The notes under the pieces: model-generated
Databases searched by the model: none
What the model was told of the DNA's origin: nothing
The model's input: the letters and a program-made list of their open reading frames with translations, nothing else
In this document: positions 4,090 to 19,260 of the stretch, piece by piece
How positions within the stretch are numbered: the first letter of the stretch is position 1
Layout: each line of letters starts with the position of its first letter
Program-made: the position numbers and the translations under genes
Assembly: GCF_000341895.1 (NCBI RefSeq)
Contig: NC_020409.1
Location: 2,100,001 to 2,132,000 of the forward strand
Length of the DNA stretch: 32,000 bases
Source of the DNA: Pseudodesulfovibrio piezophilus C1TLV30
GTDB taxonomy: Bacteria; Desulfobacterota; Desulfovibrionia; Desulfovibrionales; Desulfovibrionaceae
Direction: 5' to 3'

Positions 4090-4201
4090 TCCTGATCTCT
4101 TTGGTTGATTTTTTACGACCTTCGTGGAATATGGTGGAAAAATCAAATTCATATATTTTGAAGATGCGTTCGGAAAAACAGAACGCTCGACGGAGTCAAC
4201 C

Positions 4202-5143: not shown

Positions 5144-5920
5144 ATGATCGTTCAAACAATCATATCCCCCTGCTGGCAGGCGTCCCCCTCCGCTCTTGCC
5201 TCGAGCGTAAGCCATCTGGAGAACCTGCTCCAACATGCTCCGGACGAAACAGAGCTTTTCTTCCGCGCCGATGATATCGGTGTGCCAAGCAAGAACTGCC
5301 GCCACATGTTGGCACTCTTTGCCCGGCATCACATCCCGCTACACCTGGCCGTGACCCCGGCCTGGCTTTCTGAAACGCGATGGCAGATCCTCAGGGAATG
5401 GGCCGGGAAAGAGGACTCTCTCTGGATTTGGCACCAACACGGCTGGCGACACCAGAACCATCAGAAGAGTGGGAAAAAAGGAGAATTCGGCCAGGACCGC
5501 TCCAGCGAAGCAAAGCAGGCCGACATCATCAAAGGTCGCGAAAAACTGATTGGACTGATGGGGACCGACTTCGCGCCAGTCTTTACCCCGCCGTGGAATC
5601 GATTCGACACGGTGACCGGAGGCATTCTCGCTGAAGCGGGCTATCGTGCGGTTTCCCGATCAGTCGGCGAAATGAAAAAAGTCCCCTTGCCTGCCTGCCT
5701 GCCTGATTATGCCATCAACGTGGACCTGCATACGCGCTCGGAAGCCCTCCCCCAAAATGGACTCCAGACCCTGCTCGATGAATTTCGTCTGGCAATGGAT
5801 TCCGGTCGAATAGGAATCATGCTGCACCACCAACGCATGAACGACGCCTCTTTTTCCTTTCTGGACAGTCTCTTGTCGCTCGCAAAAAAAATAAAACGAT
5901 TCAAATTGACAACTCTATAA
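5144..5920 (+). CDS. Polysaccharide deacetylase-like (NodB/CE4-like) protein
   Basis: Motifs appear in the NodB order: FRADDIG (Asp-Asp), WHQHGWRH (H-x3-H metal ligands), FTPPWNRFD (RPPxG-like). There is no obvious signal peptide. The family assignment rests on motif recognition only. Confidence 0.55.
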   Translation: MIVQTIISPCWQASPSALASSVSHLENLLQHAPDETELFFRADDIGVPSKNCRHMLALFARHHIPLHLAVTPAWLSETRWQILREWAGKEDSLWIWHQHGWRHQNHQKSGKKGEFGQDRSSEAKQADIIKGREKLIGLMGTDFAPVFTPPWNRFDTVTGGILAEAGYRAVSRSVGEMKKVPLPACLPDYAINVDLHTRSEALPQNGLQTLLDEFRLAMDSGRIGIMLHHQRMNDASFSFLDSLLSLAKKIKRFKLTTL

Positions 5921-5965: not shown

Positions 5966-5994
5966 TTGTCATGGCTGGCCCCCTCGCTTAGTAT
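5966..5994 (+). promoter_or_regulatory. Possible sigma-70-type promoter for the ABC operon
   Basis: TTGTCA (5966-5971), 17 nt, TAGTAT (5989-5994). If it is used, the transcript would start at or after the ATG at 5995, so the true start of the first gene could be GTG 6004 or ATG 6034/6037. This is a weak call. Confidence 0.25.
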
Positions 5995-6741
5995 ATGGAG
6001 AACGTGGAAATTCAACCGGTTAATCATGGGGGCATGATGGGATGGCATAGCCGAGAGCAAAAAGGACTCACAGAAAATCAGGAAGACCGCATAAAAAGGC
6101 TCATTACCCTGCCCTTTGCCAAATCGGTGGAGATCAGCTTCAAGAGTCTCAAGGTGCGTTTTTTTCGCTCCATGATCACCGTATCCAGCCTGGTTCTGGC
6201 TGTCTCCTTTCTGTCATTTGTTCTGGTCAATCTCGATATCGCCTCCGGCCTGCTTCGGGAAGGTGGCACCGATGCTGCCCGGTCACTGGCTCTGGCCGGG
6301 TATGACGTCAACCTTGCCCAGGGGCTGGTTGCCATGTCGGCGAAGGAACGGTGGATCATCATCCTTTCCCTGCTCGTCTGTACCGTTGGCATCATCAATG
6401 CCCAATTGATGTCGGTCACCGAACGGTTCTCAGAAATCGGAGTCATGAAATGCCTGGGTGCTCTGGACTCCATGATTCTCAAGCTTTTTCTGCTCGAAGC
6501 CGCCATGCAGGGAATATTCGGCGCGGCCATCGGAGCAGTGACAGGCTTTGTTTTCTCCCTGGTCACCGGGTTTTTCCGATTCGGCCCCATGGCCCTTTCC
6601 GGGTTGTCCCTGACGGACGCCCTCGGCTCCGTGGGATTGGCGACCCTCGGCGGCTGCAGCCTGAGTCTTATCGGCGTTCTCTATCCCGCACTTCTCGCAG
6701 CACGCATGGAACCAATCAACGCCATCCGCGCCGAGCACTGA
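5995..6741 (+). CDS. Minimal FtsX/MacB-type ABC permease (4 TM, very short periplasmic loop)
   Basis: TM1 is MITVSSLVLAVSFLSFVLVNL and only about 45 aa separate it from TM2. The FtsX core is ERFSEIGVMKCLGALDSMILKLFLLEAAMQGIFGAAIGAVTG. The C-terminus LYPALLAARMEPINAIRAEH is typical of the family. The start is uncertain (see the promoter note). Confidence 0.8.
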   Translation: MENVEIQPVNHGGMMGWHSREQKGLTENQEDRIKRLITLPFAKSVEISFKSLKVRFFRSMITVSSLVLAVSFLSFVLVNLDIASGLLREGGTDAARSLALAGYDVNLAQGLVAMSAKERWIIILSLLVCTVGIINAQLMSVTERFSEIGVMKCLGALDSMILKLFLLEAAMQGIFGAAIGAVTGFVFSLVTGFFRFGPMALSGLSLTDALGSVGLATLGGCSLSLIGVLYPALLAARMEPINAIRAEH

Positions 6742-6750
6742 GGATTTTAC

Positions 6751-7530
6751 ATGTCTGAACAAAAGAAAACAATCGTCCGAGTCATTGGCGTGAGGAAGAC
6801 TTTCACCATTGGCAAGCAGAAACTCCAGGCTCTCAAGGGAGTCGATCTTGAAATATTCTCCGGTGAATACATTTCCATCATGGGACCATCGGGGTCAGGG
6901 AAATCAACTCTTTTCAATATGATCGGCGGGCTGGACAAACCCACTGACGGCAAGGTGTTCATCGATGAAGTCGATATCTCGCAACTTGATGCCTATGAGC
7001 TGGCATGGCTCCGCAATCGCAAAATCGGATATATTTTCCAGACATTCAATCTGATTCCGGTCATGACCGCCCTTGAGAACGTGACTCTCCCCATGACCTT
7101 TGCCGGGATGAATAATGACGATGCCCAGGAAAAAGGCATCGAACTGCTCAAATTGGTCGGACTGGGGGAGCGTTTCCAGCACAAGCCGCTGGAACTGTCC
7201 GGCGGTCAGCAGCAACGCGTAGCCGTAGCCCGTTCCCTAGCCAATGACCCGGCCATCATCCTGGCAGACGAACCCACGGGAAATCTCGATCTGACTACAG
7301 GCGAAGAAATCATCGAACTGCTCCAGATGCTCTCCAGCGAGCGAGGCGTGACCGTCATTTCCGCAACCCACGATTACAAAATGCTCAACGTTTCCGATCG
7401 CGTGGTCTGGGTGCGGGATGGCATGGTGGACAGAGTGGAGAAAAGGGAAGAACTCGATATCTCCATTGGAGGCATAGGAGAAAAACTCACTGGACAGAAA
7501 AAGGAATCCCAGACCGGAGGGCACTCCTAA
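6751..7530 (+). CDS. ABC transporter ATP-binding protein (MacB/LolD/FtsE-like NBD)
   Basis: Walker A is GPSGSGKST, the signature is LSGGQQQRVAVARSL, and Walker B is ILADEPTGNLD. The gene starts 9 nt after the upstream permease and ends 3 nt before the giant gene. Confidence 0.95.
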   Translation: MSEQKKTIVRVIGVRKTFTIGKQKLQALKGVDLEIFSGEYISIMGPSGSGKSTLFNMIGGLDKPTDGKVFIDEVDISQLDAYELAWLRNRKIGYIFQTFNLIPVMTALENVTLPMTFAGMNNDDAQEKGIELLKLVGLGERFQHKPLELSGGQQQRVAVARSLANDPAIILADEPTGNLDLTTGEEIIELLQMLSSERGVTVISATHDYKMLNVSDRVVWVRDGMVDRVEKREELDISIGGIGEKLTGQKKESQTGGHS

Positions 7531-7533
7531 CCC

Positions 7534-10500
7534 ATGTCCAGCAGGCAGCGCGGCAGCATAAACCGGACGCCATGGAGATCGGAAGGACCACACCGTTCCT
7601 TGCGAAACTGGCAACTGTACACCCTCATCATCTTTTTAGCACTGGCCTGGGCCTCCACTGCCATGGCAGATGAGACCTCGCTGATCCGCAGGCTGTCAGA
7701 CCTCGGCGACCGATCCGCAGGCTCTCCCGGCGCTGTTGCTGCCGCCGATATGGTGGAAAACGAATTCCAACGTCTTTTCCCGAACGCCATCATCGGCAGG
7801 CAAACCTTCCACATCCCAACTATCAAGCAAACAAATGTGACGTTGACGATTTCGGATCAGACGCGTTCGATACAACTGAGTCAGCTGCGGGTCAATGCAC
7901 TCTCGCCGGGAGCCATCGCGCCTCCCGGCATCGAAGCCCCCTTACTCTATGTCGGGCAGGGAGCCCTCACCGATTTCAATGGTCACGATGTCCAGGGTGC
8001 TGTTGTTCTCATGGATATGGATTCGGCGAAGAACTGGAACAATGCAGCCATGCTCGGTGCTCGGGCACTCATCTTTCTGGGGCGCGGCGGCAATGGCGGT
8101 CCTGCTCCACGAGCACTTTTCAAGGACAAATTCGAACAGACCCCGGTGGATTTCCCGCTTTTCTGGGTCGCACGCGAACGAGCCGAGTCCCTGTTCGGCA
8201 CCAATTTCCCCAGCCAGGGCACGGCTGTCCTGACTCGTATCCGCCTGACCTCGGCATCGGCATGGCACAAGAGTTCCGCCGAAAATATCTATTGCATGAT
8301 CCCTGGCAGTGACCCTGAACTTTCGCACCAGACACTCATCATTCAGGCCCCTTATGACGACAGCGCACTTGTGGCTGGCGACGCCCCCGGAGCCGAAGAA
8401 GCCGTTTCCATGGCCACCCTCCTGGACACGGCTGCCGAATTTGCAGAAAACCCTCCCCAAAGATCACTCTTCCTCCTGGCGACGGCCGGAACAGGGCAGG
8501 CCCAGGCAGGGATGCGTGAATTCACCTACGCTCTGGTCACGAAGGGAAAGGAACTCAAGGAGCGCAAAAACAGACTTGAACAACAGGTCATCAACGCCGG
8601 ACGTGTTCTTGAGATACTGCGTCCCATCAAGCCTCTCGAACAAGCAGCACTGTCAACAGAACAGATCGTCCTGCTCAAGAAGGCTTTCAAGGCCGTGGTT
8701 CGCAACGCAGAGGACACTCTGACCAATGAATTGATGCGCCTGCGCCTGCTCAATGCAGAAGGAGCACAGGAAAAAAGGAACCCGGCACGGCAAAAGCGTA
8801 TCAAGGAACTGGCAGACCGCAGGATTCGACTCAAACGCTTGAACTGGGTCAATTCCACCACGGACGATTTCCCTCTGGCCCGAGAGGAACACACCGTGCT
8901 GCTCGACTTCATTCCCGCAGCCATAACCCTCCAGGCAGCGATTCTCGACGATGCCACGGGGCAACTCAAGGAGATAACCTCGGCCCGCGCCATGCGCGAC
9001 GCCATCGGGGACCGAAGTATCGCAGCCCACGTTTCCCTACACCTCTCCAGCCATGGCAACGGTGTCGGCGCATTCGACAAGGGGTGGCTCAATAATCTGA
9101 AGCCGACCATCAACCGGACCGCCTTTTTCCGCCCCATTGATACTGTCCTCAAAAACAGCATGAAAACGTTCGCTGAAGAACGCCCGGACATTGCAGCCCT
9201 CTTTCACGATACCCTGCGGCCGGGAAAACGCGCCTGGCAGAGTTACCTTCCCGATCAGCCGGAGCTGGGAGGCGAACCCATGGCCCTGGCCGGATTTGCC
9301 GGGCTGACTCTGGCGACTGTCCACGATGTTCGCCCAACATGGGGCACACCCTATGATCAGCCGGAGCGAGTCAATTTCACCTCCATGAGAAAACAGAGTG
9401 AATTAGTCAAACACTTACTAAACGCTCTGGCATCCCAGCCCATTGAAAATGCCGGAGAACGTGGCAGGAACAACTTTGTCACCATAGAAGGCCGTGCCAA
9501 TCTTCTGAGAAAAGGAGAGATCTTCCCGGATCGCCCCGGAACCGGCATGGTCGTGCTCGCCTTCCAATGGCAAACCCGCAACTACGCCATGGTTGATACG
9601 GCGGGGACATTCCGGATTCCGGGCTTGGCCAGCAAAAAGGTCAGTTATCACAAGGCCGTGATCGAGGCATTCAAATTCAATGAAAAGACAGGCCTGGCCG
9701 ATTGGGCCATCGACAAGCCCAAAACAGGAAGAGATGCCTACCGCATCAAGCTTAACCGTGCGGTCCAATCCACGGACCTGATCCTCTTCGCCTGCACCCA
9801 GACAACACTGTTCGATCTCTTTGATCCGAGGACATTCAAATACCTTTACCGCCCCACGCTCATTGACGGCCGAACCGAAGCACCGCCGGTCAGCTATTGG
9901 TACAGCCGACTCGACACGCGCCGATCCACCCTCGGCACACTCTTTCTGGAACCAGACACCCCCCTCAAACTGACCCTGTCAGACACAGTACTCGATAAAA
10001 AAGTCCTGCTCCTCAATGCCGATGAAAAACACCCTCAAGGACTGGGGTATATCGCCAGACAATGGCCGGTCATTCCCATGACTGAATATCGGGCCGCCCG
10101 CGATATGTGGTCGCTCCTGGCTCCGCGTATTGAGACACTGGAATCAAAAGGCATCGTCAATGAACGCATCCGTACCCTGCGGCATCTCGGCATCAACGAC
10201 CTGAACCGGGCCGGGCAGTACAAGACAGAGAAACAGTGGGATAAGTTCGTAGAAGCGGCACGATCCTCCCTGGCCAAGGCAAGCCGGGTCTACAACGATG
10301 TGGACAAGACCCAGAAAGACGTGCTGGTTGGAGTCCTGTTCTATGTCGCGCTGTTCGTTCCCTTTGCCTACTGCATGGAGCGGCTCTTTTTCTCATTCGC
10401 TGACATCAGGAAACGCATCAGCGCATTTCTCGGCTTCCTGATCGCTATCATCGGCGTCATCTACATGGTCCACCCTGCATTTCAGCTCACCTATTCTCCC

Positions 10501-12510
10501 CTGGTGGTGATCCTCGCCTTTTTCATTCTCGCTTTGTCACTGCTGGTTTCCCTGATCATCTTTTCCCGCTTTGAACGAGAAATGGTCGAGTTGCAAAAAC
10601 GATCCGCCCATATCAAGCTGACCGGAATCAGTCCGGCAGCGGCCTTTGGTGCGGCCTTCGTGCTCGGGGTCGGCAATCTCAAACGAAGGCCCATTCGCAC
10701 ATTCCTGACCTTTGCCACCCTTGTCATCCTCACTTTTACCATCATGAATTTCACCACGGTTAAATCCGTGCGGCAGAAAGGCTGGGCCACCTTCAGCGAC
10801 ATCGCGACGTACAACGGACGACTCCTCAAATACTTCAACTGGCAAAACGTTCCGGTCGAAGCTCTCTCCGTGCTCGAAAATGCCTATCAGAACAAAGGCA
10901 TCGTCGTGCCCAGGGCATGGTATGACACGGGCCTGACCTCCGATAAATCCCGTGCTCCGCTCATCCCTGTCACCATGAATGGGGTGGAGACCCCTGCCCG
11001 AGGCATGATCGGATTGTCCTTCCTTGAGCCACAGGTCAGCGGACTGGATCGTATCCTGGTCAAAGGACGTTGGTTCGAAAAAGGGGAACGCTTCGTTGCC
11101 ATGCTCCCCGAACGCATGGCAGCACAGCTCAATGCCGATCCCAACGACCCGCAACGTAATACGTTGACCATATGGGGACTCGAAATCAAGCTGGTCGGTA
11201 TTTTTCGGGATGACGGACTGCGAGACAATCCAGATCTTGACGGCGAACCCATGACGCCCATAGTGTTTCCGAACCAGGCCGCCACCCAGCTTTCCGAAGT
11301 CGAAGCCGAAGCTATCGAAGACGGCGATGATGTCGTTTCCACCGAGTCCCGCTATCAACATATTCCAGGCTATGAAACCGTCATTATCCCGGCCGAAAAC
11401 ATGCTCGCCATCGGCAATGGCAAACTCAAGGGTATTGCCGTCAAGCCCAATGAAGGCGTAACCGAAGTTTCCGGGGATCTGGGTGACCGTTTCGGCATGT
11501 TGCTCTTTCGAGGCAGTGACTCCGGGACTTCCCTCTATTTTGCCACCGATGCCGTCAACTATTCAGGTATGGCCAATATCCTGATCCCCCTTGCCATTTC
11601 CATCCTGATTGTCCTGAACACCATGGTCGGTTCGGTTTATGAGCGCAAATCGGAAATTGCGGTCTACACTTCAGTGGGACTGGCTCCCCCCCATGTAGCC
11701 TTTCTGTTCATTGCCGAAGCCCTGGCATTCGGCGTTATCTCCGTGGTTGTCGGCTACCTGCTGGCACAAGGCTCTTCAGCGTTTCTGGCAGGAACGCCCC
11801 TCTGGGCAGGCATGACTGCCAACTACTCTTCCACCGCAGGCGTGGCCGCCATGCTTCTGGTTCTCGGCGTGGTACTGGTGTCGGCCATTTATCCGGCCAG
11901 GGTTGCCGCACGAATTGCCATCCCCGACGTCAACAAATCCTGGACCATGCCCAAGGCACACGGAGATGAACTGATCGTGATCCTGCCATTTCTGATCAAA
12001 GTTGACGAAATGGCTTCGGCCGGAGGATTTCTGCAACAATACTACATGGCACACCATGATGTTTCCCACGGAGCTTTCTGCACAGACGACATGCGATGCA
12101 ACTTTCTGGACCTGGAGCAACAGGAACTGAAAACCGGACTGCTCATGGGCTTGCCGGACGGCCACCCCATGCCCGATGATCTCTGCTTTTCCCTAGACCT
12201 GCGAGTCTGGCTGGCTCCCTTTGATTTCGGTGTGCGCCAAAAGGTCAAACTTGTCTTCTGCCCATCCGATCTCTACCAAGGATTCCGTCAGGTCCGCGTG
12301 GTCATCCTGCGTGAAGCAGGGGAACACAAGGCGTGGGAAGGGTTGAACAGAAATTTCCTCAATGACCTGAGAAAACAGCTCTTGGCCTGGCGATCTCTGG
12401 ACGAAGAAGCTGTGGAACACTATGCTGTGACCCTGAACTCCCACATGAAACGAGTCATGGATGGAATGACTCCGGACGCCATGAACGAAAACGACGAAGG
12501 CTCAATATGA
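7534..12510 (+). CDS. 1658-aa fusion protein with five parts: signal/anchor, M28/PA peptidase-like periplasmic module (degenerate active site), coiled coil, extra TM bundle, and FtsX/MacB-type permease with a C-terminal cytoplasmic extension
   Basis: - The N-terminus has a basic stretch followed by LIIFLALAWASTAMA-DE.
- An M28-like start SAGSPGAVAAADMVENEF is followed by a PA-like insert (VQGAVVLMDMD...GARALIFL) and the motifs IIQAPYDDS, GAEEAVSMATLL and LLATAGTGQAQAG.
- A Lys/Glu/Arg-rich helical segment runs from about 8540 to 8940.
- Three TM segments occur around 10321-10575.
- The FtsX N-motif is LKRRPIRTFLTFATLVILTF, followed by a periplasmic domain of about 230 aa.
- The FtsX core is YERKSEIAVYTSVGLAPPHVAFLFIAEALAFGV...IYPARVAARIAIPD, followed by about 190 more aa. 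Confidence 0.85.
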   Translation: MSSRQRGSINRTPWRSEGPHRSLRNWQLYTLIIFLALAWASTAMADETSLIRRLSDLGDRSAGSPGAVAAADMVENEFQRLFPNAIIGRQTFHIPTIKQTNVTLTISDQTRSIQLSQLRVNALSPGAIAPPGIEAPLLYVGQGALTDFNGHDVQGAVVLMDMDSAKNWNNAAMLGARALIFLGRGGNGGPAPRALFKDKFEQTPVDFPLFWVARERAESLFGTNFPSQGTAVLTRIRLTSASAWHKSSAENIYCMIPGSDPELSHQTLIIQAPYDDSALVAGDAPGAEEAVSMATLLDTAAEFAENPPQRSLFLLATAGTGQAQAGMREFTYALVTKGKELKERKNRLEQQVINAGRVLEILRPIKPLEQAALSTEQIVLLKKAFKAVVRNAEDTLTNELMRLRLLNAEGAQEKRNPARQKRIKELADRRIRLKRLNWVNSTTDDFPLAREEHTVLLDFIPAAITLQAAILDDATGQLKEITSARAMRDAIGDRSIAAHVSLHLSSHGNGVGAFDKGWLNNLKPTINRTAFFRPIDTVLKNSMKTFAEERPDIAALFHDTLRPGKRAWQSYLPDQPELGGEPMALAGFAGLTLATVHDVRPTWGTPYDQPERVNFTSMRKQSELVKHLLNALASQPIENAGERGRNNFVTIEGRANLLRKGEIFPDRPGTGMVVLAFQWQTRNYAMVDTAGTFRIPGLASKKVSYHKAVIEAFKFNEKTGLADWAIDKPKTGRDAYRIKLNRAVQSTDLILFACTQTTLFDLFDPRTFKYLYRPTLIDGRTEAPPVSYWYSRLDTRRSTLGTLFLEPDTPLKLTLSDTVLDKKVLLLNADEKHPQGLGYIARQWPVIPMTEYRAARDMWSLLAPRIETLESKGIVNERIRTLRHLGINDLNRAGQYKTEKQWDKFVEAARSSLAKASRVYNDVDKTQKDVLVGVLFYVALFVPFAYCMERLFFSFADIRKRISAFLGFLIAIIGVIYMVHPAFQLTYSPLVVILAFFILALSLLVSLIIFSRFEREMVELQKRSAHIKLTGISPAAAFGAAFVLGVGNLKRRPIRTFLTFATLVILTFTIMNFTTVKSVRQKGWATFSDIATYNGRLLKYFNWQNVPVEALSVLENAYQNKGIVVPRAWYDTGLTSDKSRAPLIPVTMNGVETPARGMIGLSFLEPQVSGLDRILVKGRWFEKGERFVAMLPERMAAQLNADPNDPQRNTLTIWGLEIKLVGIFRDDGLRDNPDLDGEPMTPIVFPNQAATQLSEVEAEAIEDGDDVVSTESRYQHIPGYETVIIPAENMLAIGNGKLKGIAVKPNEGVTEVSGDLGDRFGMLLFRGSDSGTSLYFATDAVNYSGMANILIPLAISILIVLNTMVGSVYERKSEIAVYTSVGLAPPHVAFLFIAEALAFGVISVVVGYLLAQGSSAFLAGTPLWAGMTANYSSTAGVAAMLLVLGVVLVSAIYPARVAARIAIPDVNKSWTMPKAHGDELIVILPFLIKVDEMASAGGFLQQYYMAHHDVSHGAFCTDDMRCNFLDLEQQELKTGLLMGLPDGHPMPDDLCFSLDLRVWLAPFDFGVRQKVKLVFCPSDLYQGFRQVRVVILREAGEHKAWEGLNRNFLNDLRKQLLAWRSLDEEAVEHYAVTLNSHMKRVMDGMTPDAMNENDEGSI

Positions 12511-14513
12511 ACGGACGAATCAGGATACGGGCGCTTGTGACCGGGCTTTTGCTCGGCCTTTTCCTCTGTATCTTCACACCCTACAACAACACCGTTCTTC
12601 ATAATACTCCGCTGGGCGGCGGCCATTTTCCCCTGGCTCCCTTCTTTATCATCGCATGGTTGTTCGTACTCGACGCCCTTGCTGCCCGACTCAGCCGCCG
12701 ACGCCCCTTTTATTCCGGCGTGGAATTGCTCGTGATCTGGCTGATGACCGTATTGTTCACATCCATCGGCTATGCCGGGCTCAGCGAGTGTTTCTTCATC
12801 AACATCACCGCACCAGAACACTTTGCGCAAGATGCCTATCGCTGGACGGAAGTCCTGACTCCCCTGCTGCCAAAATCATGGTTTCCGGACTCCACTCAGG
12901 CTGTGCATGTTTTTTATGAAGGTATCAGAAATGGCCGTACCATGGGCGTCCTCGAAGTCCTGTCGTCCATACCCTGGCATGTCTGGCTTCCCGTGCTGGC
13001 TGTCTGGGCCTTGTTCATTCTGGGAGCTTTTTTTGTCATGATCTGCCTGATGGTCCTCTTCGGCCGTCAATGGGTGGTCAACGAGCGCGTCCTGTTCCCC
13101 CTCGTCCGTGTTCCCATGCTCATGGGCGAAGCCCTGGACCAAAGACAATTCCTGGACTGGTGGTCCAACCGATATCTGCTCATCGGATTGACCTTTGCCG
13201 GAGCACTGCACCTGCTCAACGGACTGCATTTCTATTTTCCCTCAATTCCCCAGATGCCCACACTGGTGCTGGCCGGCACCTACTTCCCGAAGTTCGGCCT
13301 CTTTTCCGGCTTCCACAAGCTCAAAATGTTTTTTGTTCCCGCTTTCATCGGCTTCGCCTTCCTGACAACACGACAAATATCCTTTTCCATGTGGGTCTTT
13401 TACATCCTCGGCGGCCTCCTCTTCGGGGTGCTCTATATCTTTGGCTGGCAACTCCCGGAAGCCGCACTCGGCACGACCCTTGGACCTGACCTTGCCCGGC
13501 CCGAAGGCGCGCAGACCATCGGAGCCTACATTATCTTCTTTATTTTTCTGCTCTGGCTGGCCCGCCATCACCTGAAAGAAACCGTTATCTGCTTCCTGCG
13601 ACCGGTCTGCCACAGTTCCGAACTGGAAGGGAAAGGGAAATTCGACACCATCCCCAAGGAATGGGGACCGCCCATCTGGCCGCTATGGGGACTCATTGGC
13701 GGACTGGTCGGTCTCTCCGCCTGGTGCTGGTTCTTCGGCCTGCCTCTCCTGGCCGCGCTCTTCCTGCCACTAATGTTTCTCATCTTCACTCTGGTGACCA
13801 GTCGCATCGTCTGTCAGGGAGGACTTCCCTATTTCACGCTCACAGCAGCCCCATCCGACGCTTTGATGGGGTTCTTCGGCACAGGCTTTTTCGGGACTGT
13901 CGGAATCGCCGCCACCGCAGTTATGCAAAAGGTCCTCTTCCTCGACATGCGTGAGGCTCTCGCCCCCACTCTTTTTCATGGTTCAAAGATCAGGCAGGAA
14001 GCCCGACAGCGTCATCTCGTGCTTATAGCCATCGGCATAGCATTGGTCCTTGCCCTGACTACAGCCTTTGTGACCATGTTGTTTCTCGGCTACAAATACG
14101 GTCTCCGGGAACTTGGCCTGGATTGGGCAACTCAGACCGTTCTCGCCAACTACCAAAACGCCCAGCGGCTTGTGGACCAGCCCGTGGGACCCAATGGATG
14201 GACTCTCACCTATGCCGGGGCAGGAGCCGTTGTCATGGGATTACTCATTTTCTGCTACTATAAGATTCCCTGGTGGCCCCTGCATCCTCTCGGCTATCTC
14301 GTCGCCTATTCCGGGGGAATGAAGATTCTCTGGTTCCCGTTCTTTCTTGGCTGGTTATGCAACCACCTCGTTCTCCATTATGGTGGCACGGCCTTGTTCA
14401 ATCGTGTCCGTTTTCTTTTTGTCGGCCTGATCCTCGGCGACTTTCTGATGGGAGGTGTTTTTACTATAGTCGGCTTGTTCAACAACCAAAGCTACTCTGT
14501 TTTCCCTCTTTAA
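12507..14513 (+). CDS. Polytopic membrane protein (668 aa), distant OPT-superfamily-like; possibly the DUF6785/DUF6784 type
   Basis: ATGA start/stop overlap with the giant gene. At least 14 hydrophobic segments. NERVLFPLVRVP and the C-terminal WWPLHPLGYLVAYS...FLGWLCNHLVLHYGG...GLILGDFLMGG resemble OPT-type motifs. The DUF names come from memory and are unverified. Confidence 0.75.
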   Translation: MNGRIRIRALVTGLLLGLFLCIFTPYNNTVLHNTPLGGGHFPLAPFFIIAWLFVLDALAARLSRRRPFYSGVELLVIWLMTVLFTSIGYAGLSECFFINITAPEHFAQDAYRWTEVLTPLLPKSWFPDSTQAVHVFYEGIRNGRTMGVLEVLSSIPWHVWLPVLAVWALFILGAFFVMICLMVLFGRQWVVNERVLFPLVRVPMLMGEALDQRQFLDWWSNRYLLIGLTFAGALHLLNGLHFYFPSIPQMPTLVLAGTYFPKFGLFSGFHKLKMFFVPAFIGFAFLTTRQISFSMWVFYILGGLLFGVLYIFGWQLPEAALGTTLGPDLARPEGAQTIGAYIIFFIFLLWLARHHLKETVICFLRPVCHSSELEGKGKFDTIPKEWGPPIWPLWGLIGGLVGLSAWCWFFGLPLLAALFLPLMFLIFTLVTSRIVCQGGLPYFTLTAAPSDALMGFFGTGFFGTVGIAATAVMQKVLFLDMREALAPTLFHGSKIRQEARQRHLVLIAIGIALVLALTTAFVTMLFLGYKYGLRELGLDWATQTVLANYQNAQRLVDQPVGPNGWTLTYAGAGAVVMGLLIFCYYKIPWWPLHPLGYLVAYSGGMKILWFPFFLGWLCNHLVLHYGGTALFNRVRFLFVGLILGDFLMGGVFTIVGLFNNQSYSVFPL

Positions 14514-14632
14514 CCTGACAAATGGAAAAACTCTGTTGATATGAAAAACTTCTCCCCTGACGCACTGACACAATAAAAAACAAAGCCGCCCTCCTCTTTC
14601 CCTGCGAGACAGAGTGATCTCCAGAAGAAAAG

Positions 14633-16621
14633 ATGGTCTGGAGGCCGGGAACATGGACCCCTATGTACGACGACAAAGAACTCCAGGAATACCGAAATTT
14701 AATGAAGCCCCCCGAGCATTTCGAGGAGGGCTTTGACTGGAAAACCATTGTCGGTGCGGTGTTCATCGGTTTTCTGATGATGCCCGGCTCCATGTACCTG
14801 CAATTGGTCATCGGACAAGGCATCGGCCCGGCAGCGCGGTGGGTGACGATCATCCTTTTTGCCGAGATCGCAAAACGCTCATATACCCATCTGAAACAAC
14901 AGGAAATTTTCCTTCTTTACTATATGGCTGGGGCTGCGCTGGCGTCTCCATTCCAAGGGTTGCTCTGGAATCAATACCTTATCCAGTCCGATGCAGCCCG
15001 GATGCTCGGATTGACGGAGTTCATCCCGCACTGGGTCGCCCCGGCACTAGGATCCGGCTCCTACCTGGAGCGGACCTTCATGCACCGCGATTGGCTGGTG
15101 CCGATCATGCTGTTGGTGGGTGCGCAACTCGTCCAGCGCATTGACCATTTCGGATTAGGATATTCCCTGTACCGTATCACTTCGGATGTGGAAAAGCTCC
15201 CGTTTCCCATGGCTCCGGTGGGAGCATTGGGTACTATGGCCCTGGCTGAGTCCACCGAGGATCGCAAGACAGGGTGGAAATGGCGAATCTTTTCCATCGG
15301 CGGCGTAATCGGTCTGCTCTTCGGCTTTTTCTATGTTCTCCTTCCCGCGCTCTCCGGCCTGCTGTTCACAGAACCAATACGGCTGATTCCCATCCCATGG
15401 ATCGAACTCACCCAGTACACGGAAGCCATGCTCCCGGCAGTGGCAACTGGTATCCAGTTCGATCTGGGACTGGTCTTCGTGGGGATGGTCCTGCCATTCT
15501 GGGCTGTGATCGGCGGCTTGCTGGGACTGGTTATCACCATCATCGCCAACCCCATCCTGTACACCCATGGCATCCTGCATCGCTGGCATCCAGGCATGGC
15601 CACGGTTGAAACCGTTTTCGCCAATAATTTTGATTTCTACATGAGTTTCGGCATTGGACTGGGGCTGGCAATCGGGGCCGTCGGCATTTACCACGTCCTG
15701 CGATCATTCAAGGATTCAAGAGGAAACGGATTGGACTTCTCGGCCCTGTTCAATCCGCCCAAAGGACGTGGCGACATCAATTTCTGGGTTTCCATCGGCA
15801 TCTATGTCTTCTCGACGCTCTGCTACATCGCTTTTTGCGTCTGGCTGGTACCGTCATTCCCATGGATATTCTTCGTTATCTACGGCTTCATCTACACACC
15901 TGTCATATCGTACATTACAGCACGGATGGAGGGTGTGGCCGGGCAGTTCATAGCCCTGCCCATGGTGCGTGAATTTTCCTTCATTGCCGGAGCCAAGTTC
16001 TTTGGCTACCAGGGGTTGGAGATCTGGTATGCTCCAATTCCCATCCATAACTATGGCGAAGCAACCGTCCAGTTCCGGCAAATTGAACTGACCGGAACAA
16101 GCCTGCGCGGCATCATCAAGGCCGAGATCATCGTTTTCCCCATCGTGATGATCACCTCGCTTCTCTTCTCGCAATTCTTATGGCAACTCGCACCGATCCC
16201 CTCACCGGAATACCCTTTCGCGCAGGAATTATGGCATTTACAGGCATTGAATACCTTGCTCATGCAGACTTCGACACTGGAAGGCAATTCCCTGTTCTTC
16301 GAAGCGCTTTCCGGTCCCATTGTCCTGTCCGGACTGGGGCTTGGCCTTGGTATGTATGCGGTGCTCAATATTCTGGGACTTCCGGTCCTGCTGATCTACG
16401 GGGTGGTCCGAGGTTTGGGCCAATCCACCCCCCATGGTATGATATTGGAAGTCATCGGGGCTATGCTTGGGCGTCTGTATTTTCTGAAAAAATATGGGAC
16501 CCAGTGGCGGCACTACGCCCCGGTTCTGCTGGCCGGATTCTCCTGCGGCATGGGCTTGACCGGCATGTTCGCCATGGGCTGCACCCTGATTCTCAAGTCA
16601 CTGGGCCGCCTTGCCTATTAG
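14633..16621 (+). CDS. Polytopic membrane protein (662 aa), OPT (oligopeptide transporter) superfamily-like
   Basis: The N-terminal FDWKTIVGAVFIGFLMMPGSMYLQLVIGQGIGPAARWVTIILFAEIAKR resembles the OPT TM1-2 region. EKLPFPMAPVGALGTMAL resembles the OPT L-P-(F/Y)-P-x-G motif. The C-terminal GAMLGRLYFLKKYG...LLAGFSCGMGLTGM is OPT-like. ATG 14663 is an alternative start. Confidence 0.75.
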   Translation: MVWRPGTWTPMYDDKELQEYRNLMKPPEHFEEGFDWKTIVGAVFIGFLMMPGSMYLQLVIGQGIGPAARWVTIILFAEIAKRSYTHLKQQEIFLLYYMAGAALASPFQGLLWNQYLIQSDAARMLGLTEFIPHWVAPALGSGSYLERTFMHRDWLVPIMLLVGAQLVQRIDHFGLGYSLYRITSDVEKLPFPMAPVGALGTMALAESTEDRKTGWKWRIFSIGGVIGLLFGFFYVLLPALSGLLFTEPIRLIPIPWIELTQYTEAMLPAVATGIQFDLGLVFVGMVLPFWAVIGGLLGLVITIIANPILYTHGILHRWHPGMATVETVFANNFDFYMSFGIGLGLAIGAVGIYHVLRSFKDSRGNGLDFSALFNPPKGRGDINFWVSIGIYVFSTLCYIAFCVWLVPSFPWIFFVIYGFIYTPVISYITARMEGVAGQFIALPMVREFSFIAGAKFFGYQGLEIWYAPIPIHNYGEATVQFRQIELTGTSLRGIIKAEIIVFPIVMITSLLFSQFLWQLAPIPSPEYPFAQELWHLQALNTLLMQTSTLEGNSLFFEALSGPIVLSGLGLGLGMYAVLNILGLPVLLIYGVVRGLGQSTPHGMILEVIGAMLGRLYFLKKYGTQWRHYAPVLLAGFSCGMGLTGMFAMGCTLILKSLGRLAY

Positions 16622-16734: not shown

Positions 16735-16780
16735 AAAAGACCTGATGCTTCATACTCGAAGCATCAGGTCTTTTATTTCC
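16735..16780. terminator. Bidirectional rho-independent terminator
   Basis: aaaagacctgatgcttc (16735-16751) pairs perfectly with gaagcatcaggtctttt (16758-16774) across the loop atactc. T-runs follow on both strands. It lies between the operon end (16621, +) and the topA stop (16843, -). Confidence 0.75.
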
Positions 16781-16842: not shown

Positions 16843-19260
16843 TTATTTCTCTGCGTCCATTTCCCTTGTATATCCGCACCCTTTTTGGGGGCATGCGATA
16901 TGTTCCCCTTTGTCCTTGGTGGTCTTTCGGGTCAGAATAGGATGCTGGCACTTGGGACATGGCTCATTGACAGGCCAATTCCAGACGGCATAATCGCACT
17001 TGGGATAGGTGGAGCAGGAATAAAAGAGCTTGCCCCGGCGCGATGACTTTTCAACCAACTCCCCTTCACACCCCTCATTGGGGCAGGGAACCCCTGTCGA
17101 AAAAGGCGCGGCATAGGTGCAGTCAGGATAGTTGGAACAGGCGATAAAACGGGAGCCTGTCCGGGCCTTCTTGAGAAGCAATTCCCCCCCGCATTCCGGA
17201 CAGGTGCCGACAACCTTGGGTTTTTCGCTCTCAATGACCTTGATTTTGCCGTTTTCATCCCGCTCAAAATTGACGATATTCTTGCAATCCGGGTAGCCCG
17301 TGCAGCCGAGGAATTCACCCCGCCTGGACTGCTTGATGGCCATGGGACGTCCGCATTTGTCGCATTTAACGCCGGTTTCTTCCGGCTTCTCACGCTCCAC
17401 TATCTGGATAGCCCCCTGCTCGTCACGGGTGAAATTCTTGATTGTCCGACAGGATGGAAAGCCTGTACACCCCAGGAATTCCCCAGTTTTCCCAAACTTG
17501 ATGGCCATGGGTTTTCCACAATTCTCACAGACAATTTCGGTTTCCTGCTGAGAACGGGCCATTTCCGTCCGGGCCTTGTCGAGGGTCGGATAGAAATCTC
17601 CCCCAAAGTCATTGAGCAATTTAACCCAGTCCTGCTTGCCTGCGGCCACATCATCAAGCAGATTTTCCATCTGTGCGGTGAACCCGACATCCATAAGAGC
17701 CTTGAAATGCTCGGAAAGCTGGTTGGAGACGGTAAAACCCAGTTCGGTAGGAACAAAACGCTTTTCTTCCTGACGGGCATATTCCCGGTCGAGCAGTGTG
17801 GAAATAATTGCGGCATACGTCGAAGGACGGCCGATACCGAGTTCCTCCAGCGTCTTGACGAGCGATGCTTCCGAATACCGTGGCGGCGGCTGAGTGAACT
17901 TTTGTTCCTTTTTCAACTCATTGAGGGCGAGGATATCGCCTTCAGCCAGCTTGGGTAGTTCGGTATCACCATCACTGCTTCCCTTGTCCATGGCAGCCAG
18001 GAAACCGGGAAAGAGCAGACGTTCTCCCTTGGCCCGCCACTGGGTGCGCGGAGCCTTGACCAGAACGGTGGTATCCCAGAACGTGGCAACAGCCATCTGT
18101 GAAGCTACAAAGCGCTGCCAGACCAATCGGTAAAGCTTGTGCTGTTCGGACGGAAGATAGGATTTGACGTCATCAGGCGTGATGGAGACATCAACGGGAC
18201 GGATCGCTTCATGCGCGTCCTGGGCGCTCCCCTTGGTCTTGAAGTGCCGTGTTTTGGGCGGATAATAATCGTCACCGAACTTGTCGAGAATCAATTCCCT
18301 GGCCGCATCCTGCGCGTCCTTGGCAATGCGCACCGAATCGGTACGCATGTAGGTGATGAGAGCCGTGGTTCCACGCTTGCCAAGCTCCACACCTTCATAG
18401 AGACGCTGGGCAATGGACATGGTCCGCTTGGCAGAATAGCCCATACGCCTGTTGGCGTCCTGTTGCAGGGTCGAGGTAATATATGGCGGCAGAGGCGAAC
18501 GTTTGCGCTGCTTCTCCTGCACGGAATCCACCACGAATTCTCCATTCTCCAAAGCATCCTGAAGAGATTCGGCCTCGGTCTGGGTACCGATGTGATTGAC
18601 GCCCGGTTTGACGGCCTTCTCTTCCAGCTTGTGAAGATCGAGCCAGAACGGTGGCGGAGTGGAACCTTCCAGCAACACCTTGAACGGCCAGTATTCATCG
18701 GCCCGAAAAGCGCGGCGCTCCTTCTCCCGCTCCACCAGAATCTTGAGGGCAACGGACTGAACCCGCCCTGCGGAAATTCCGCGTTTGACATTCTTCCAGA
18801 GAATCGGAGAAATCTTGTAACCAACCAGGCGATCAAGAATTCGACGCGCCTGCTGGGAGTCAAACAGGTTCTCATTGAGTTCCTGTGCGTCCTCAAGAGC
18901 TCCCTTGACTGCTCGAGCAGTAATTTCGTTGAACTGAATACGTCGGATTTTCTTGTTGACTGGCTTGATAAGCTCGGCAACATGCCACGCAATAGCCTCT
19001 CCCTCGCGGTCGGGGTCAGGTGCGAGATAGACGGTATCCGCTTTTTTGGCGGCGGCTTTCAGGCGTTTGACGACCTCCTCCTTGCCCTTGATGACCTCAT
19101 ATTGCGGGGCGAAGTCATTTTCTTCATCCACACCGAGGTCGCGGGTTGGCAGGTCGCGGACATGTCCGACAGAGGCGTCGACCATATAGTCCTTACCCAG
19201 GAACTTACTGATGGTCTTCACTTTGGCGGGGGACTCAACGATGATTAAATCTTTTGACAT
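16843..19260 (-). CDS. topA: DNA topoisomerase I
   Basis: MSKDLIIVESPAKVKTISKFLGKDYMVDASVGHVRDLP forms the Toprim N-terminus. The type IA core is present, and the C-terminus carries five CxxC...CxxxxxC zinc ribbons. Confidence 0.97.
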   Translation of the reverse strand: MSKDLIIVESPAKVKTISKFLGKDYMVDASVGHVRDLPTRDLGVDEENDFAPQYEVIKGKEEVVKRLKAAAKKADTVYLAPDPDREGEAIAWHVAELIKPVNKKIRRIQFNEITARAVKGALEDAQELNENLFDSQQARRILDRLVGYKISPILWKNVKRGISAGRVQSVALKILVEREKERRAFRADEYWPFKVLLEGSTPPPFWLDLHKLEEKAVKPGVNHIGTQTEAESLQDALENGEFVVDSVQEKQRKRSPLPPYITSTLQQDANRRMGYSAKRTMSIAQRLYEGVELGKRGTTALITYMRTDSVRIAKDAQDAARELILDKFGDDYYPPKTRHFKTKGSAQDAHEAIRPVDVSITPDDVKSYLPSEQHKLYRLVWQRFVASQMAVATFWDTTVLVKAPRTQWRAKGERLLFPGFLAAMDKGSSDGDTELPKLAEGDILALNELKKEQKFTQPPPRYSEASLVKTLEELGIGRPSTYAAIISTLLDREYARQEEKRFVPTELGFTVSNQLSEHFKALMDVGFTAQMENLLDDVAAGKQDWVKLLNDFGGDFYPTLDKARTEMARSQQETEIVCENCGKPMAIKFGKTGEFLGCTGFPSCRTIKNFTRDEQGAIQIVEREKPEETGVKCDKCGRPMAIKQSRRGEFLGCTGYPDCKNIVNFERDENGKIKVIESEKPKVVGTCPECGGELLLKKARTGSRFIACSNYPDCTYAAPFSTGVPCPNEGCEGELVEKSSRRGKLFYSCSTYPKCDYAVWNWPVNEPCPKCQHPILTRKTTKDKGEHIACPQKGCGYTREMDAEK

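Follow-up and report, generated by a model that had tools for sequence, protein, structure and literature searches.

A five-gene operon joining an FtsX-type ABC module with a giant subunit to two OPT-like membrane proteins in Pseudodesulfovibrio piezophilus

The window analysed here, a stretch of 32,000 nucleotides of the genome of Pseudodesulfovibrio piezophilus, contains a block of five open reading frames, all on the + strand, between positions 5995 and 16621: gene 1 (5995-6741, 248 aa), gene 2 (6751-7530, 259 aa), gene 3, called the giant in what follows (7534-12510, 1658 aa), gene 4 (12507-14513, 668 aa) and gene 5 (14633-16621, 662 aa). They are separated, in this order, by 9 nt, by 3 nt, by a 4-nt ATGA overlap of genes 3 and 4 and by 119 nt. 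The tight packing had been pointed out in an earlier, sequence-only reading, together with the lack of a hairpin in the last spacer, and indeed this spacer has no significant structure (z = 0.16). The same reading had set beforehand that terminators splitting the block would refute it; no convincing terminator was found within the five genes, and the sole strong one, an intrinsic-terminator-like hairpin (16735-16774, + strand, a 17-bp stem followed by a T-run), lies downstream of gene 5, before the convergent gene topA (16843-19260, - strand). A weak sigma-70-like promoter match directly before gene 1 (5966-5994, + strand, 9 of 12 consensus positions) is no better than expected from shuffled sequences and gives no evidence of function. 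The composition is native. From the short gaps, the overlap, the unstructured spacer and the terminator after gene 5, we concluded that the block is one operon; it probably encodes a composite inner-membrane machine.

Two other genes of the + strand precede it. The first (4124-5095) encodes a LysR-family regulator (Pfam HTH_1 and LysR_substrate); elsewhere a LysR gene stands upstream of the operon only in Pseudodesulfovibrio pelocollis (locus L004), and the protein is possibly a local regulator of the operon, conserved in close relatives only. The second (5144-5920) encodes a DUF2334 protein of the CE4-like polysaccharide-deacetylase fold (Pfam Polysacc_deac_1 and DUF2334, both E 1.3e-6), the translation of which carries the motifs ADD, HGWRH and LHH; it has no TM segment by hydropathy and is described as cytoplasmic. 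A homologue is found at 38 of 84 loci, in most cases upstream and in the same orientation, and often immediately adjoining. We call this gene an accessory gene of the operon.

Gene 1 is a minimal FtsX-type protein: its residues 121-240 match Pfam FtsX (E 4.9e-14), hydropathy gives four TM segments, and the loop between TM1 and TM2 counts just about 40 aa. It is 27% identical to the TM2-TM4 region of the giant (E 8e-7), and its coupling-helix motif, TERFSEIGV, has an ER..EI pattern common to both FtsX proteins. Gene 2, with a median identity of 78% across loci, matches Pfam ABC_tran (E 1.4e-33), and its translation has an intact Walker A (GPSGSGKST), signature (LSGGQQQR), Walker B (ILADEPT) and H-loop. 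The best NCBIfam models for it are LolD, MacB (NBD), DevA (E 2e-62) and FtsE, every one of them below its cut-off; judged from these profiles, the ATPase belongs to the LolD/MacB/DevA/FtsE group. With Pfam FtsX found in the giant as well, the composition proposed earlier, one nucleotide-binding protein and two very unequal FtsX-type permeases of 248 and 1658 aa, is borne out.

The giant (CCH49235.1 / WP_015415279.1; 1658 aa according to NCBI, 1636 aa according to JGI) matches Pfam FtsX at residues 1350-1461 (E 7.5e-10) and, weakly, PA, while hydropathy predicts seven TM segments and a signal-peptide-like N-terminus. All its parts are given here by residues and by positions on the + strand. The hydrophobic helix of the N-terminus (residues 24-45, 7603-7668; modelled as a helix over 24-39, with low pLDDT) ends in AMA followed by DE. 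It is followed by a head resembling the PA-domain M28 aminopeptidases (residues 46-640, 7669-9453; profiles and Foldseek, model pLDDT 89), which a helical insertion interrupts (residues 338-491, 8545-9006). The profile matches of the head are PDB 2ek8 (E 1.5e-10), YwaD (6e-10) and the transferrin receptor (1.6e-5); those of Foldseek are 2ek8 (1.2e-17), then BSAP, PaAP, TfR1 and GCPII. In this head 'APYDDS' stands in place of 'SHHDS' and 'ATAGTG' in place of 'GAEENG', neither the catalytic Glu-Glu pair nor the first His ligand is retained, and the loss of catalytic residues is family-wide, including in the one archaeal member examined. To call the head a pseudo-peptidase, without the canonical catalytic site, is correct as far as its sequence can tell; by analogy with the transferrin receptor and nicastrin, the lost zinc-site and catalytic residues suggest a binding role.

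After the head comes a beta-rich extracytoplasmic domain (residues 648-845, 9475-10068), modelled as all-beta with a pLDDT mostly above 90. It has no assigned fold, and it is not covered by the M28-type Foldseek alignments (target length 400-700) which dominate the match list. The PA-M28 fold, the helical insertion and this domain, as seen by profiles, model and Foldseek, agree with the extracytoplasmic module of about 880 aa, part pseudo-peptidase, part coiled-coil and part beta-rich, that had been read from the sequence. Long helices then lead to three extra TM helices (930-1009) within residues 850-1009 (10081-10560; hydropathy and model), a region in which the loop motif HPAFQLTYSP is invariant in the alignment columns. 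The MacB/FtsX-fold module (residues 1033-1461, 10630-11916; Pfam FtsX and Foldseek) is made of an amphipathic helix, TM1, a periplasmic domain of about 270 aa (10762-11577) and TM2-4, and its coupling-helix motif is YERKSEIAVY. Foldseek matches it to MacB 5gko (1.4e-13), then to 5xu1, LolCDE, HrtBA, YtrEF and FtsEX, as well as to the MacB periplasmic domain 5lj8, and homologues of the giant match MacB_PCD. The protein ends with a cytoplasmic alpha/beta domain (residues 1462-1658, 11917-12507) marked by the motifs WLAPFDFG and RKQLLxWR and by invariant columns. This domain has no Pfam or PDB sequence match, Foldseek gives weak Bet v 1/PYL-like matches and no others (E 0.02-0.07), and none of the remote or archaeal relatives has lost it.

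The products of genes 4 and 5 contain about 15 hydrophobic segments apiece, in keeping with the at least 14 TM segments announced for each of these proteins of about 660 aa. Gene 4 matches Pfam DUF6785 (E 9e-145) and DUF6784 (E 1e-31), while the gene 5 protein itself reaches the threshold of no Pfam family. The Pfam check set beforehand was thus met for FtsX, ABC_tran, a weak PA, DUF6785/DUF6784 and, in homologues of the giant, MacB_PCD, and failed for gene 5 itself. Among the wider relatives of gene 5, however, 18 of 45 match Pfam OPT (PF03169; best E 1.3e-17), and 'peptide transporter' and 'OPT/YSL family' are found among the NCBI names of its homologues. An hhalign comparison of the gene-4 and gene-5 families runs end to end over 571 columns (84% probability, E 7e-6) and aligns the motifs NERxxFPL and EKLPFPM. 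On these profile comparisons the two proteins are mutually distant members of the OPT superfamily, and the earlier description of both as OPT-like stands. Gene 5 is about 79% identical across loci (median), against about 46% for the giant. Since its homologues have 651-653 aa and start with MYDDKEL, its true start is probably Met11, at position 14663, which brings the spacer after gene 4 to about 149 nt. PDZ or beta-propeller domains are inserted in some of the relatives of gene 5, and in two genomes of the Pseudodesulfovibrio group two amino-acid-binding-protein-like genes lie between genes 4 and 5.

Relatives of the giant occur in at least 598 species genomes, and the operon in hundreds of genomes of sulfate reducers. 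Among the best 80 loci, both upstream genes are present at 67 of the 69 with upstream coverage and both downstream genes at 56 of the 57 with coverage; a check of co-occurrence had been set beforehand, and the five genes pass it almost without exception. They keep the same order and strand in essentially every related genome with a sufficient contig, which means that the arrangement is more than chance, and many genomes retain the ATGA overlap between genes 3 and 4. Genes for glycosyltransferases, phosphatases and deacetylases immediately precede the operon in many Desulfobacterota. Full-text literature, sequence and structure searches revealed no characterised homologous operon and no study of a combination of FtsX-ABC and OPT-like proteins; the earlier reading, too, knew of no characterised system of this composition.

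Farther away, a triad made of the giant, the OPT-like protein and DUF6785 recurs in metagenomes and in Bathyarchaeia: the three genes are together at the Bathyarchaeia locus L090 and at L091 and L092, two metagenomic loci from the same lineage. Giant and OPT-like genes remain neighbours from Desulfobacterota to Bathyarchaeia, with gene 5 identity down to 25%; the two OPT-like genes exchange their order yet stay with the giant, and at five of five remote metagenomic loci the OPT-like gene is directly preceded by a homologue of the C-terminal part of the giant. No ATPase or small FtsX gene adjoins the triad at the archaeal and planctomycete-like loci, where the neighbours are catabolic (catabolic or functionally unrelated at L090 and L091). 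This indicates, by comparison of gene neighbourhoods, that the triad and not the five-gene set is the conserved ancient core. It also means that ATP coupling may not be intrinsic to the core, unless the missing genes are elsewhere. With the triad present in archaea, the core is less likely to serve the outer membrane or peptidoglycan specifically, which weakens the analogy with FtsEX-EnvC drawn earlier.

We propose the following machine. The two FtsX subunits would pair asymmetrically, as a heterodimer of the LolCDE kind served by two copies of the ATPase, and binding and hydrolysis of ATP would move the periplasmic head, as inferred from other type VII ABC mechanotransducers. Such mechanotransducers do not themselves offer a substrate any path across the membrane. 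The OPT-like pair may be the transmembrane conduit, coupled to the giant via the extra TM helices and/or the C-terminal domain, both points being again inferred. The dead aminopeptidase/PA head could then be a receptor, as in the transferrin receptor or nicastrin, binding a peptide-containing substrate outside the cytoplasmic membrane, which would pass to the OPT-like proteins and be taken up; in Desulfobacterota the ATPase module would supply power or gating. To our knowledge, all characterised OPT transporters are importers. The architecture of this composite machine seems probable to us, with protein contacts that are inferred, while the uptake role, whose substrate and direction have no experimental support, is rather doubtful. 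Taken as a whole, with pairing, contacts, substrate and direction all inferred and no experiment, the statement remains tentative, our doubt slightly outweighing our belief.

As to peptide-like uptake, the observations counted toward it are the receptor-like dead aminopeptidase fold, the PDZ and beta-propeller insertions in gene 5 relatives, the amino-acid-binding-protein-like genes between genes 4 and 5 and the catabolic neighbours at the archaeal and planctomycete-like loci; the upstream glycosyltransferase, phosphatase and deacetylase genes of many Desulfobacterota point instead to biosynthesis and export. The failure of gene 5 to reach any Pfam threshold and the mere 84% probability of the gene 4/5 match were counted against our best explanation.

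These upstream genes could mean that the operon exports or assembles an envelope glycoconjugate or glycolipid, a reading we find unlikely without dismissing it. Cytoplasmic glycosyltransferases would make the product together with a phosphatase and the DUF2334 deacetylase, the OPT-like proteins would pass it across the membrane, and the MacB-type module would push it outward via a tall periplasmic assembly, like MacB/DevBCA, with no membrane-fusion protein as an additional component. In favour of this reading, type VII ABC systems do their work at the periplasmic face, and for most of those characterised this work is extrusion or extraction. The genes found repeatedly upstream, most of them in the same orientation, fit it as well (GT28-C-like at 46 loci, GT4 at 34, His_Phos_1 at 33, DUF2334 at 38 including the window), as do the good score of the ATPase against DevA (E 2e-62) and the existence of relatives of the giant with a beta-galactosidase-like head in place of M28 (PADLOC PDLC01990). 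However, no glycosyltransferase/phosphatase cluster lies upstream beside the operon in the window, in G20 (L084) or in L002, where a single Glycos_transf_2 gene is downstream of the operon; the neighbours at the archaeal loci L090 and L091 do not fit either, the clusters share no conserved gene for a membrane-fusion or outer-membrane partner, and we know of no exporter in the OPT family.

It is still less probable that two independent systems happen to be neighbours, with genes 1-3 encoding a mechanotransducer of the FtsEX/Lol type that works on a target in the envelope, and genes 4-5 encoding two ordinary proton-driven OPT-type peptide importers. Each part does come from a family which works alone elsewhere, genes 4 and 5 are 119-149 nt apart, and some lineages lack the ATPase and small FtsX genes beside the triad. 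Against this stand the start/stop codon overlap of genes 3 and 4, the near-constant presence of both downstream genes (56/57 loci), and the persistence of the giant/OPT-like adjacency up to Bathyarchaeia, at 25% gene 5 identity and through changes of order. We give very little credit to a membrane effector of signalling or defence, in which the C-terminal domain of the giant would bind a small-molecule signal and switch the membrane module. The idea comes from PADLOC PDLC01991 'CARF_m8--CARF_LolE_TM', a model of proteins that are related to the giant and are catalogued with the CARF-domain sensors. It matches residues 866-1494 of the giant (E 4e-49), and in remote relatives the match reaches deeper into the C-terminal domain, up to model position ~684 of 810, this domain being conserved and without an assigned family. 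Yet the C-terminal domain alone matches no PADLOC model, the secondary structure predicted for it shows no clear Rossmann/CARF pattern, no CARF protein is among the best 50 Foldseek matches listed, no CRISPR or other defence genes were found at the loci examined, and the composition is native.

The proposed machine can be compared with several known systems. With 'CARF_m8 - LolE_TM' of PADLOC (PDLC01991/PDLC01990) the giant has a clear homology over the extra TM helices and the FtsX module (E 4e-49), and its remote relatives beside OPT-like genes match even better, but the model beyond position ~590 is left unmatched by the giant. With the transferrin receptor, nicastrin and the PA-domain M28 aminopeptidases (2ek8, YwaD/BSAP, PaAP) the head shares a PA-inserted M28 fold, deprived of zinc-site and catalytic residues as in the two former; unlike all of these, it is fused to an ABC permease and has, in Desulfobacterota, a helical insertion of 150 aa. 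The OPT/YSL family (PF03169, TC 2.A.67) is approached by gene 5 through its family overlap (18/45) and by size and number of hydrophobic segments, gene 4 being more distant; known OPT proteins are lone proton symporters, whereas here the two genes, themselves below the OPT threshold, form an obligate pair adjoining an FtsX-type protein. A sequence search found no solved structure for the OPT-like proteins.

FtsEX-EnvC is likewise an FtsX-fold ABC system whose ATP cycle moves an extracytoplasmic, inactive peptidase-like/coiled-coil partner. In our case the inactive module and a helical hairpin are within the giant polypeptide itself, the pseudo-enzyme is of the M28/PA type and not LytM, the FtsX and FtsE models stay below cut-offs, and the triad also occurs in archaea, where peptidoglycan is absent. 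MacB (MacAB-TolC) and pneumococcal Spr0693-0695 offer the closest solved folds for giant residues 1033-1461, periplasmic domain included (5gko, 5xu1, 5lj8), and mechanotransmission, as in MacB, is the mode of action expected here; but the ATPase is separate and not fused, the set of permeases is heteromeric, genes for a membrane-fusion protein or a TolC-like protein are not conserved near the operon, and OPT-like proteins would be coupled. As in LolCDE, finally, two different FtsX-fold permeases go with a single ATPase gene, for which LolD is the best NCBIfam model, and Foldseek matches the module of the giant to LolC and LolE. The Lol models nevertheless score far below their cut-offs (lolCE 45 bits vs 362, LolD 230 bits vs 308), the core is also found in archaea, which are without a Lol pathway, and the machine differs from LolCDE by one permease without periplasmic domain (gene 1), by what the giant has in addition (about 900 extracytoplasmic residues, three TM helices and a C-terminal domain), and by its OPT-like partners.

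The five genes form one operon on the forward strand, and an ORF scan reproduced exactly the coordinates which the sequence-only reading had assigned to them: gene 1, the small FtsX protein (5995-6741, 248 aa); gene 2, the ABC ATPase (6751-7530, 259 aa); gene 3, the giant FtsX-type protein (7534-12510, 1658 aa, the same protein as Pseudodesulfovibrio piezophilus CCH49235.1 / WP_015415279.1); gene 4, the DUF6785/DUF6784 membrane protein (12507-14513, 668 aa); and gene 5, the OPT-like membrane protein (14633-16621, 662 aa). Their successive spacings are 9 nt, 3 nt, a 4-nt overlap and 119 nt. This last spacer had been described as free of hairpins, and its folding is indeed at the level of shuffled sequence (z = 0.16). 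One hairpin alone is convincing as a terminator: at 16735-16774, where gene 5 and topA converge, a perfect 17-bp stem is flanked by an A-run and a T-run, and it has the appearance of a bidirectional terminator. There is no Rfam match, hence no regulatory RNA or riboswitch was found, and a mobile element or foreign island was rejected on the base composition, which is uniform over the window. Judging from its homologues, which are 651-653 aa long with the N-terminus MYDDKEL, the true start of gene 5 is probably Met11 (position 14663).

Gene 1 matches the four-helix FtsX domain PF02687 only (E 4.9e-14, above the Pfam cut-off). It has four hydrophobic segments and no extracytoplasmic domain (Porter with or without Sabre) between TM1 and TM2: a loop of about 40 aa replaces the periplasmic domain of MacB-type permeases. 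Gene 2 matches ABC_tran (E 1.4e-33), and its translation carries intact Walker A, signature, Walker B and H-loop motifs. Its top NCBIfam models are LolD, MacB, DevA, YbbA and FtsE, each below the equivalog cut-off. As far as sequence alone can tell, gene 2 qualifies as the cognate ATPase, of the MacB/LolD/FtsE clade and with its catalytic motifs intact. The coupling-helix motif is kept in both permeases, the small FtsX protein and the giant.

The giant matches Pfam FtsX (PF02687) with an E-value of 7.5e-10, above the cut-off, and its homologues match PF12704. A model of residues 1016-1658 (pLDDT 79.5) was compared with known structures by Foldseek: the C-terminal half matched MacB 5gko at 1.4e-13 and, further, the pneumococcal Spr0694 permease, LolC/LolE, HrtB, YtrF, BceB and FtsX. 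The approximately 270 aa which lie between TM1 and TM2 match structures of the MacB periplasmic domain by itself (5lj8 and 5c59), and this insertion qualifies as the extracytoplasmic domain (Porter with or without Sabre) of a type VII ABC system. Genes 1 and 3 both answer to the description of type VII ABC (MacB/FtsX-fold) permeases, as predicted from their sequences and from the model. Over its last 200 residues or so, the giant has a conserved alpha/beta domain, cytoplasmic by topology, in which the motifs WLAPFDFG and RKQLLxWR occur. This domain has no relative in Pfam and no sequence relative in the PDB; Foldseek matches to a Bet v 1-like fold were too weak for use. The PADLOC model PDLC01991 ("CARF_m8--CARF_LolE_TM") matches residues 866-1494 of the giant (window 10132-12015) with an E-value of 4e-49; the match spans model positions 11-585 of 810, in the TM region, and remote relatives of the giant extend it to position ~684. 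The C-terminal domain alone gave no PADLOC match. PDLC01990, a sister model of PDLC01991, matches more weakly, which suggests that there are relatives with a beta-galactosidase-like head.

The N-terminal half of the giant begins with a signal-peptide-like segment, and an AlphaFold2 model of residues 1-1015 reached a mean pLDDT of 89 and a pTM of 0.86. The best Foldseek matches of this half are PA-domain M28 aminopeptidases (2ek8 at 1.2e-17; also B. subtilis BSAP/YwaD and P. aeruginosa PaAP), with the transferrin receptor and glutamate carboxypeptidase II/III next in rank. Searching with a sequence profile built on residues 46-350 leads to the same proteins (2ek8 1.5e-10, TfR 1.6e-5, nicastrin 0.12) and homologues of the giant match PF04389 (M28), while the PA match of the window's own giant stays under the Pfam cut-off. 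When aligned with 2ek8/YwaD, the metal-ligand histidine of "SHHDS" is a phenylalanine in the giant family and a proline in the window ("APYDDS"), and in place of the "EE" (catalytic residue and ligand) of "GAEENG" the family has Gly-His and the window Gly-Thr; a Bathyarchaeia homologue retains the first histidine and has His-His for Glu-Glu. The last two of the M28 zinc ligands (His, Asp, Glu, Asp, His) were judged by manual alignment only. Because the histidine ligand and the Glu-Glu pair are replaced, we interpret the head (residues 46-640) as a predicted M28 fold without the canonical active site, like the transferrin receptor and nicastrin. The "pseudo-peptidase" module which had been proposed for the giant is thus borne out, since the PA-M28 fold is found by Foldseek and by profile without the Glu-Glu pair, and an active aminopeptidase was rejected on the catalytic residues. 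The model also shows long helices, a helical insertion of about 150 aa in the head (residues 338-491) that is missing in the archaeal protein, and a beta-rich domain (residues 648-845) for which no fold was identified in a whole-model Foldseek list dominated by the M28 part. Three extra TM helices, with an invariant HPAFQLTYSP loop, occupy residues 930-1009.

As to genes 4 and 5, the Pfam families expected from the sequence-only reading were met for FtsX, ABC_tran and DUF6784/DUF6785, but gene 5 was left without any match, even at an E-value of 10, and has no NCBIfam match either. Gene 4 matches DUF6785 (E 9e-145) and DUF6784 (E 1e-31) and no other Pfam family. The orthologues of gene 5 are named "peptide transporter" or "OPT/YSL family transporter" by NCBI, and an exhaustive phmmer search with gene 5 gave 1007 cluster representatives. 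Among 45 full-length family members defined by phmmer (25-84% identity), 18 match Pfam OPT (PF03169), the best with an E-value of 1.3e-17. BLASTP found no similarity between genes 4 and 5, so that direct paralogy cannot be claimed, and the link comes only from profile-profile comparison: hhalign aligned the two families end to end over 571 columns (84% probability, E 7e-6), placing the invariant NERxxFPL of gene 4 against EKLPFPM of gene 5. Each protein has about 15 hydrophobic segments. From the OPT matches among gene-5 relatives, the profile alignment and the segment counts, we take genes 4 and 5 to be putative divergent members of the OPT superfamily, the link of gene 4 holding at 84% probability. 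No solved structure is related to either of them by sequence or by profile. Some relatives of gene 5 are longer, at 800-1080 aa (P0262, P0266, P0269, P0271, P0285 and P0286), and these carry a beta-propeller (Reg_prop or WD40) or a PDZ domain inserted near gene-5 residue ~552.

When one genome per GTDB species was scanned, tblastn confirmed relatives of the giant in at least 598 species genomes. The best 80 of these come almost all from named Desulfobacterota lineages, including Pseudodesulfovibrio, Maridesulfovibrio, Halodesulfovibrio, Desulfomicrobium, Desulfobacterales, Desulfobulbaceae and Syntrophobacterales. The five genes had been treated as a unit, and they do stay together: of the 69 loci that extend 2 kb or more upstream, 67 have both the small FtsX and the ATPase genes, and of the 57 that extend 4.6 kb or more downstream, 56 have genes 4 and 5, always in identical order and strand. 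Many genomes also keep the ATGA at which genes 3 and 4 overlap. Against the window, the median identity of gene 5 is 79%, of the ATPase 78%, of the small FtsX protein 55%, of gene 4 50% and of the giant 46%. Over the Desulfobacterota orders (loci L002-L083), gene 5 (14633-16621) is about 79% identical (range 73-91%); it must therefore be strongly constrained and probably has an important function. To judge by these identities, the constraint is unusually strong for a polytopic membrane protein. The operon is also present in Oleidesulfovibrio alaskensis G20 (locus L084), where a Methyltransf_24 gene is inserted at 1183-2055 between the small FtsX and ATPase genes. The G20 orthologue of gene 5 is probably Dde_0728, a mapping inferred from gene name and position, and the orthologous genes as a group are probably Dde_0728-0733, likewise by inference. 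Dde_0728 ranks with the most strongly regulated genes of a transcriptome study (PMC10533852), and the literature found on it consists of an expression table only.

The synteny of the giant and OPT-like pair is very strong and deep. Directly downstream of a homologue of the C-terminal part of the giant, cytoplasmic domain included, five metagenomic loci carry a relative of gene 5 (25-49% identity). DUF6785 comes next in both loci which have enough contig and an identifiable protein (L085 and L086); the downstream ORFs of two others (L087 and L089) have no Pfam match. The lineage around one metagenomic relative of gene 5 is archaeal (Thermoprotei and Bathyarchaeia): a Bathyarchaeia locus (L090, 3304-11926) and a metagenomic locus of the same lineage (L091, 3582-11872) have DUF6785, giant and OPT-like genes, with giants of 1430-1463 aa that match Pfam M28 and FtsX, and neither contig has an ATPase gene or a small FtsX gene. 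A third locus of this lineage (L092, 3924-12828) has giant, DUF6785 and OPT-like genes with a 113-aa FtsX fragment, the ATPase gene being absent from the contig. As the archaeal giant retains the coupling-helix motif, an unlinked ATPase is still possible. A planctomycete-like bacterial contig (L001, 4903-16228) has the giant and DUF6785, with no ATPase gene nearby and no OPT-like gene within 10 kb. Its neighbours are DUF885, NamZ, GH4, SASA and GFO_IDH_MocA genes, which suggests catabolism of amino sugars or peptides. Compared with the set of five genes, the core is smaller and older. That archaea possess the triad of giant, OPT-like and DUF6785 genes speaks against a role bound to the outer membrane or peptidoglycan.

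The neighbours of the operon offer some clues. In Desulfobacterota a same-strand cluster often lies upstream (L009 330-8291, L046 2321-8418 and L069 2976-8190 are examples), made of two GT28-C-like and two GT4 glycosyltransferase genes with a His_Phos_1 histidine phosphatase gene and a DUF2334/CE4-like gene; the main rival reading, export of a glycoconjugate built by these glycosyltransferases, takes its substrate from there. The window has only the DUF2334/CE4-like gene of this cluster (5144-5920), preceded by a LysR regulator; its product appears to be cytoplasmic and its deacetylase motifs are apparently intact. We favour instead receptor-assisted uptake of a peptide-containing substrate, the uptake activity being inferred without transport data. 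The reasons are that OPT proteins characterised to date are, as far as we know, importers, that the head resembles a receptor-type dead aminopeptidase, that related proteins bear PDZ, propeller or binding-protein additions, and that the archaeal and planctomycete-like loci have catabolic neighbours. In two members of the Pseudodesulfovibrio group, P. karagichevae and "D. caledoniensis", the binding-protein additions are two tandem genes resembling family-3 periplasmic amino-acid-binding proteins, placed between genes 4 and 5 (L006 16950-18550, also L080).

Many Desulfobacterales have, downstream on the same strand, genes for two unknown proteins (~222 and ~298 aa) and a PqqD-like protein, and, on the opposite strand, genes for a cNMP-binding protein and for an MsbA-like ABC exporter of ~833 aa whose ATPase domain contains an insertion; examples of this recurrent set are L015 12162-17812 and, in G20, L084 16411-19411. 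This downstream set has a likeness to a peptide (RiPP-like) export gene set. That the genes belong to independent systems which merely neighbour each other is less likely than uptake; the loci where ATPase and small FtsX genes are missing beside the triad would suit it, and the synteny of the giant and OPT-like pair weighs on the other side. A signalling or defence role, towards which the PDLC01991 match could point, is also less likely, and a defence system was rejected, PADLOC having given only this LolE_TM-type match and generic ATPase matches.

MacB, LolCDE, FtsEX and HrtBA have no transmembrane pore and use ATP hydrolysis to move extracytoplasmic domains. By analogy with this established behaviour of type VII ABC systems, the giant and the small FtsX protein would form an asymmetric dimer with two copies of the ATPase, the ATP cycle would move the head, and the OPT-like pair may serve as the membrane conduit. 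The dimer has indirect support only, from the coupling-helix motif kept by both permeases and from the joint presence of the small FtsX and ATPase genes in 67 of 69 loci. There is a real chance, though we hold it to be less likely than not, that the giant and two OPT-fold proteins make up a hybrid transporter of a class not recognised before, conserved across Bacteria and Archaea, in which a pore-less type VII ABC mechanotransducer gates, loads or energises conduits of secondary-transporter fold through a dead-aminopeptidase receptor and a new cytoplasmic coupling domain. Such a union, if true, would offer a tractable bacterial model for the OPT superfamily, which to our knowledge is less well understood than any other major family of peptide transporters. 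The reach of the system includes sulfate reducers amenable to genetics, O. alaskensis G20 among them, and its core is found in Bathyarchaeia. For annotation, DUF6785/DUF6784 would be counted as OPT-superfamily members (at the 84% hhalign probability), the name "FtsX-like permease family protein" conceals a multi-domain machine, and the M28-like domain of the giant is not to be called an active peptidase.

All five genes had been predicted before and bear generic names; one of the families is a DUF in Pfam, and a computational catalogue includes the TM part of the giant. Literature searches (DUF6785/DUF6784, FtsX with OPT or M28/PA, DUF214, G20 tags) returned expression and methylation tables only and no functional study. 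The sequence-only reading knew of no characterised system of this composition, and searches of sequences, structures and literature brought up none. The type VII relatives given by Foldseek are MacB, LolCDE, HrtBA, YtrEF and FtsEX; membership of the Lol, FtsEX and MacAB systems was rejected on model thresholds and absent partner genes. The NCBIfam equivalog thresholds of LolCDE are missed (lolCE 45.4 bits against 362, LolD 229.6 against 307.75), as are those of FtsEX (FtsX models 15-30 bits against 225-255, FtsE 203 against 264.85), and the HlyD-family membrane-fusion partner of MacAB-TolC is absent from the operon and from the recurrent neighbour clusters. The accepted view of type VII ABC systems is that of motors doing work outside the membrane; their conserved physical or functional union with OPT proteins would, if true, be a new way to build a transporter.
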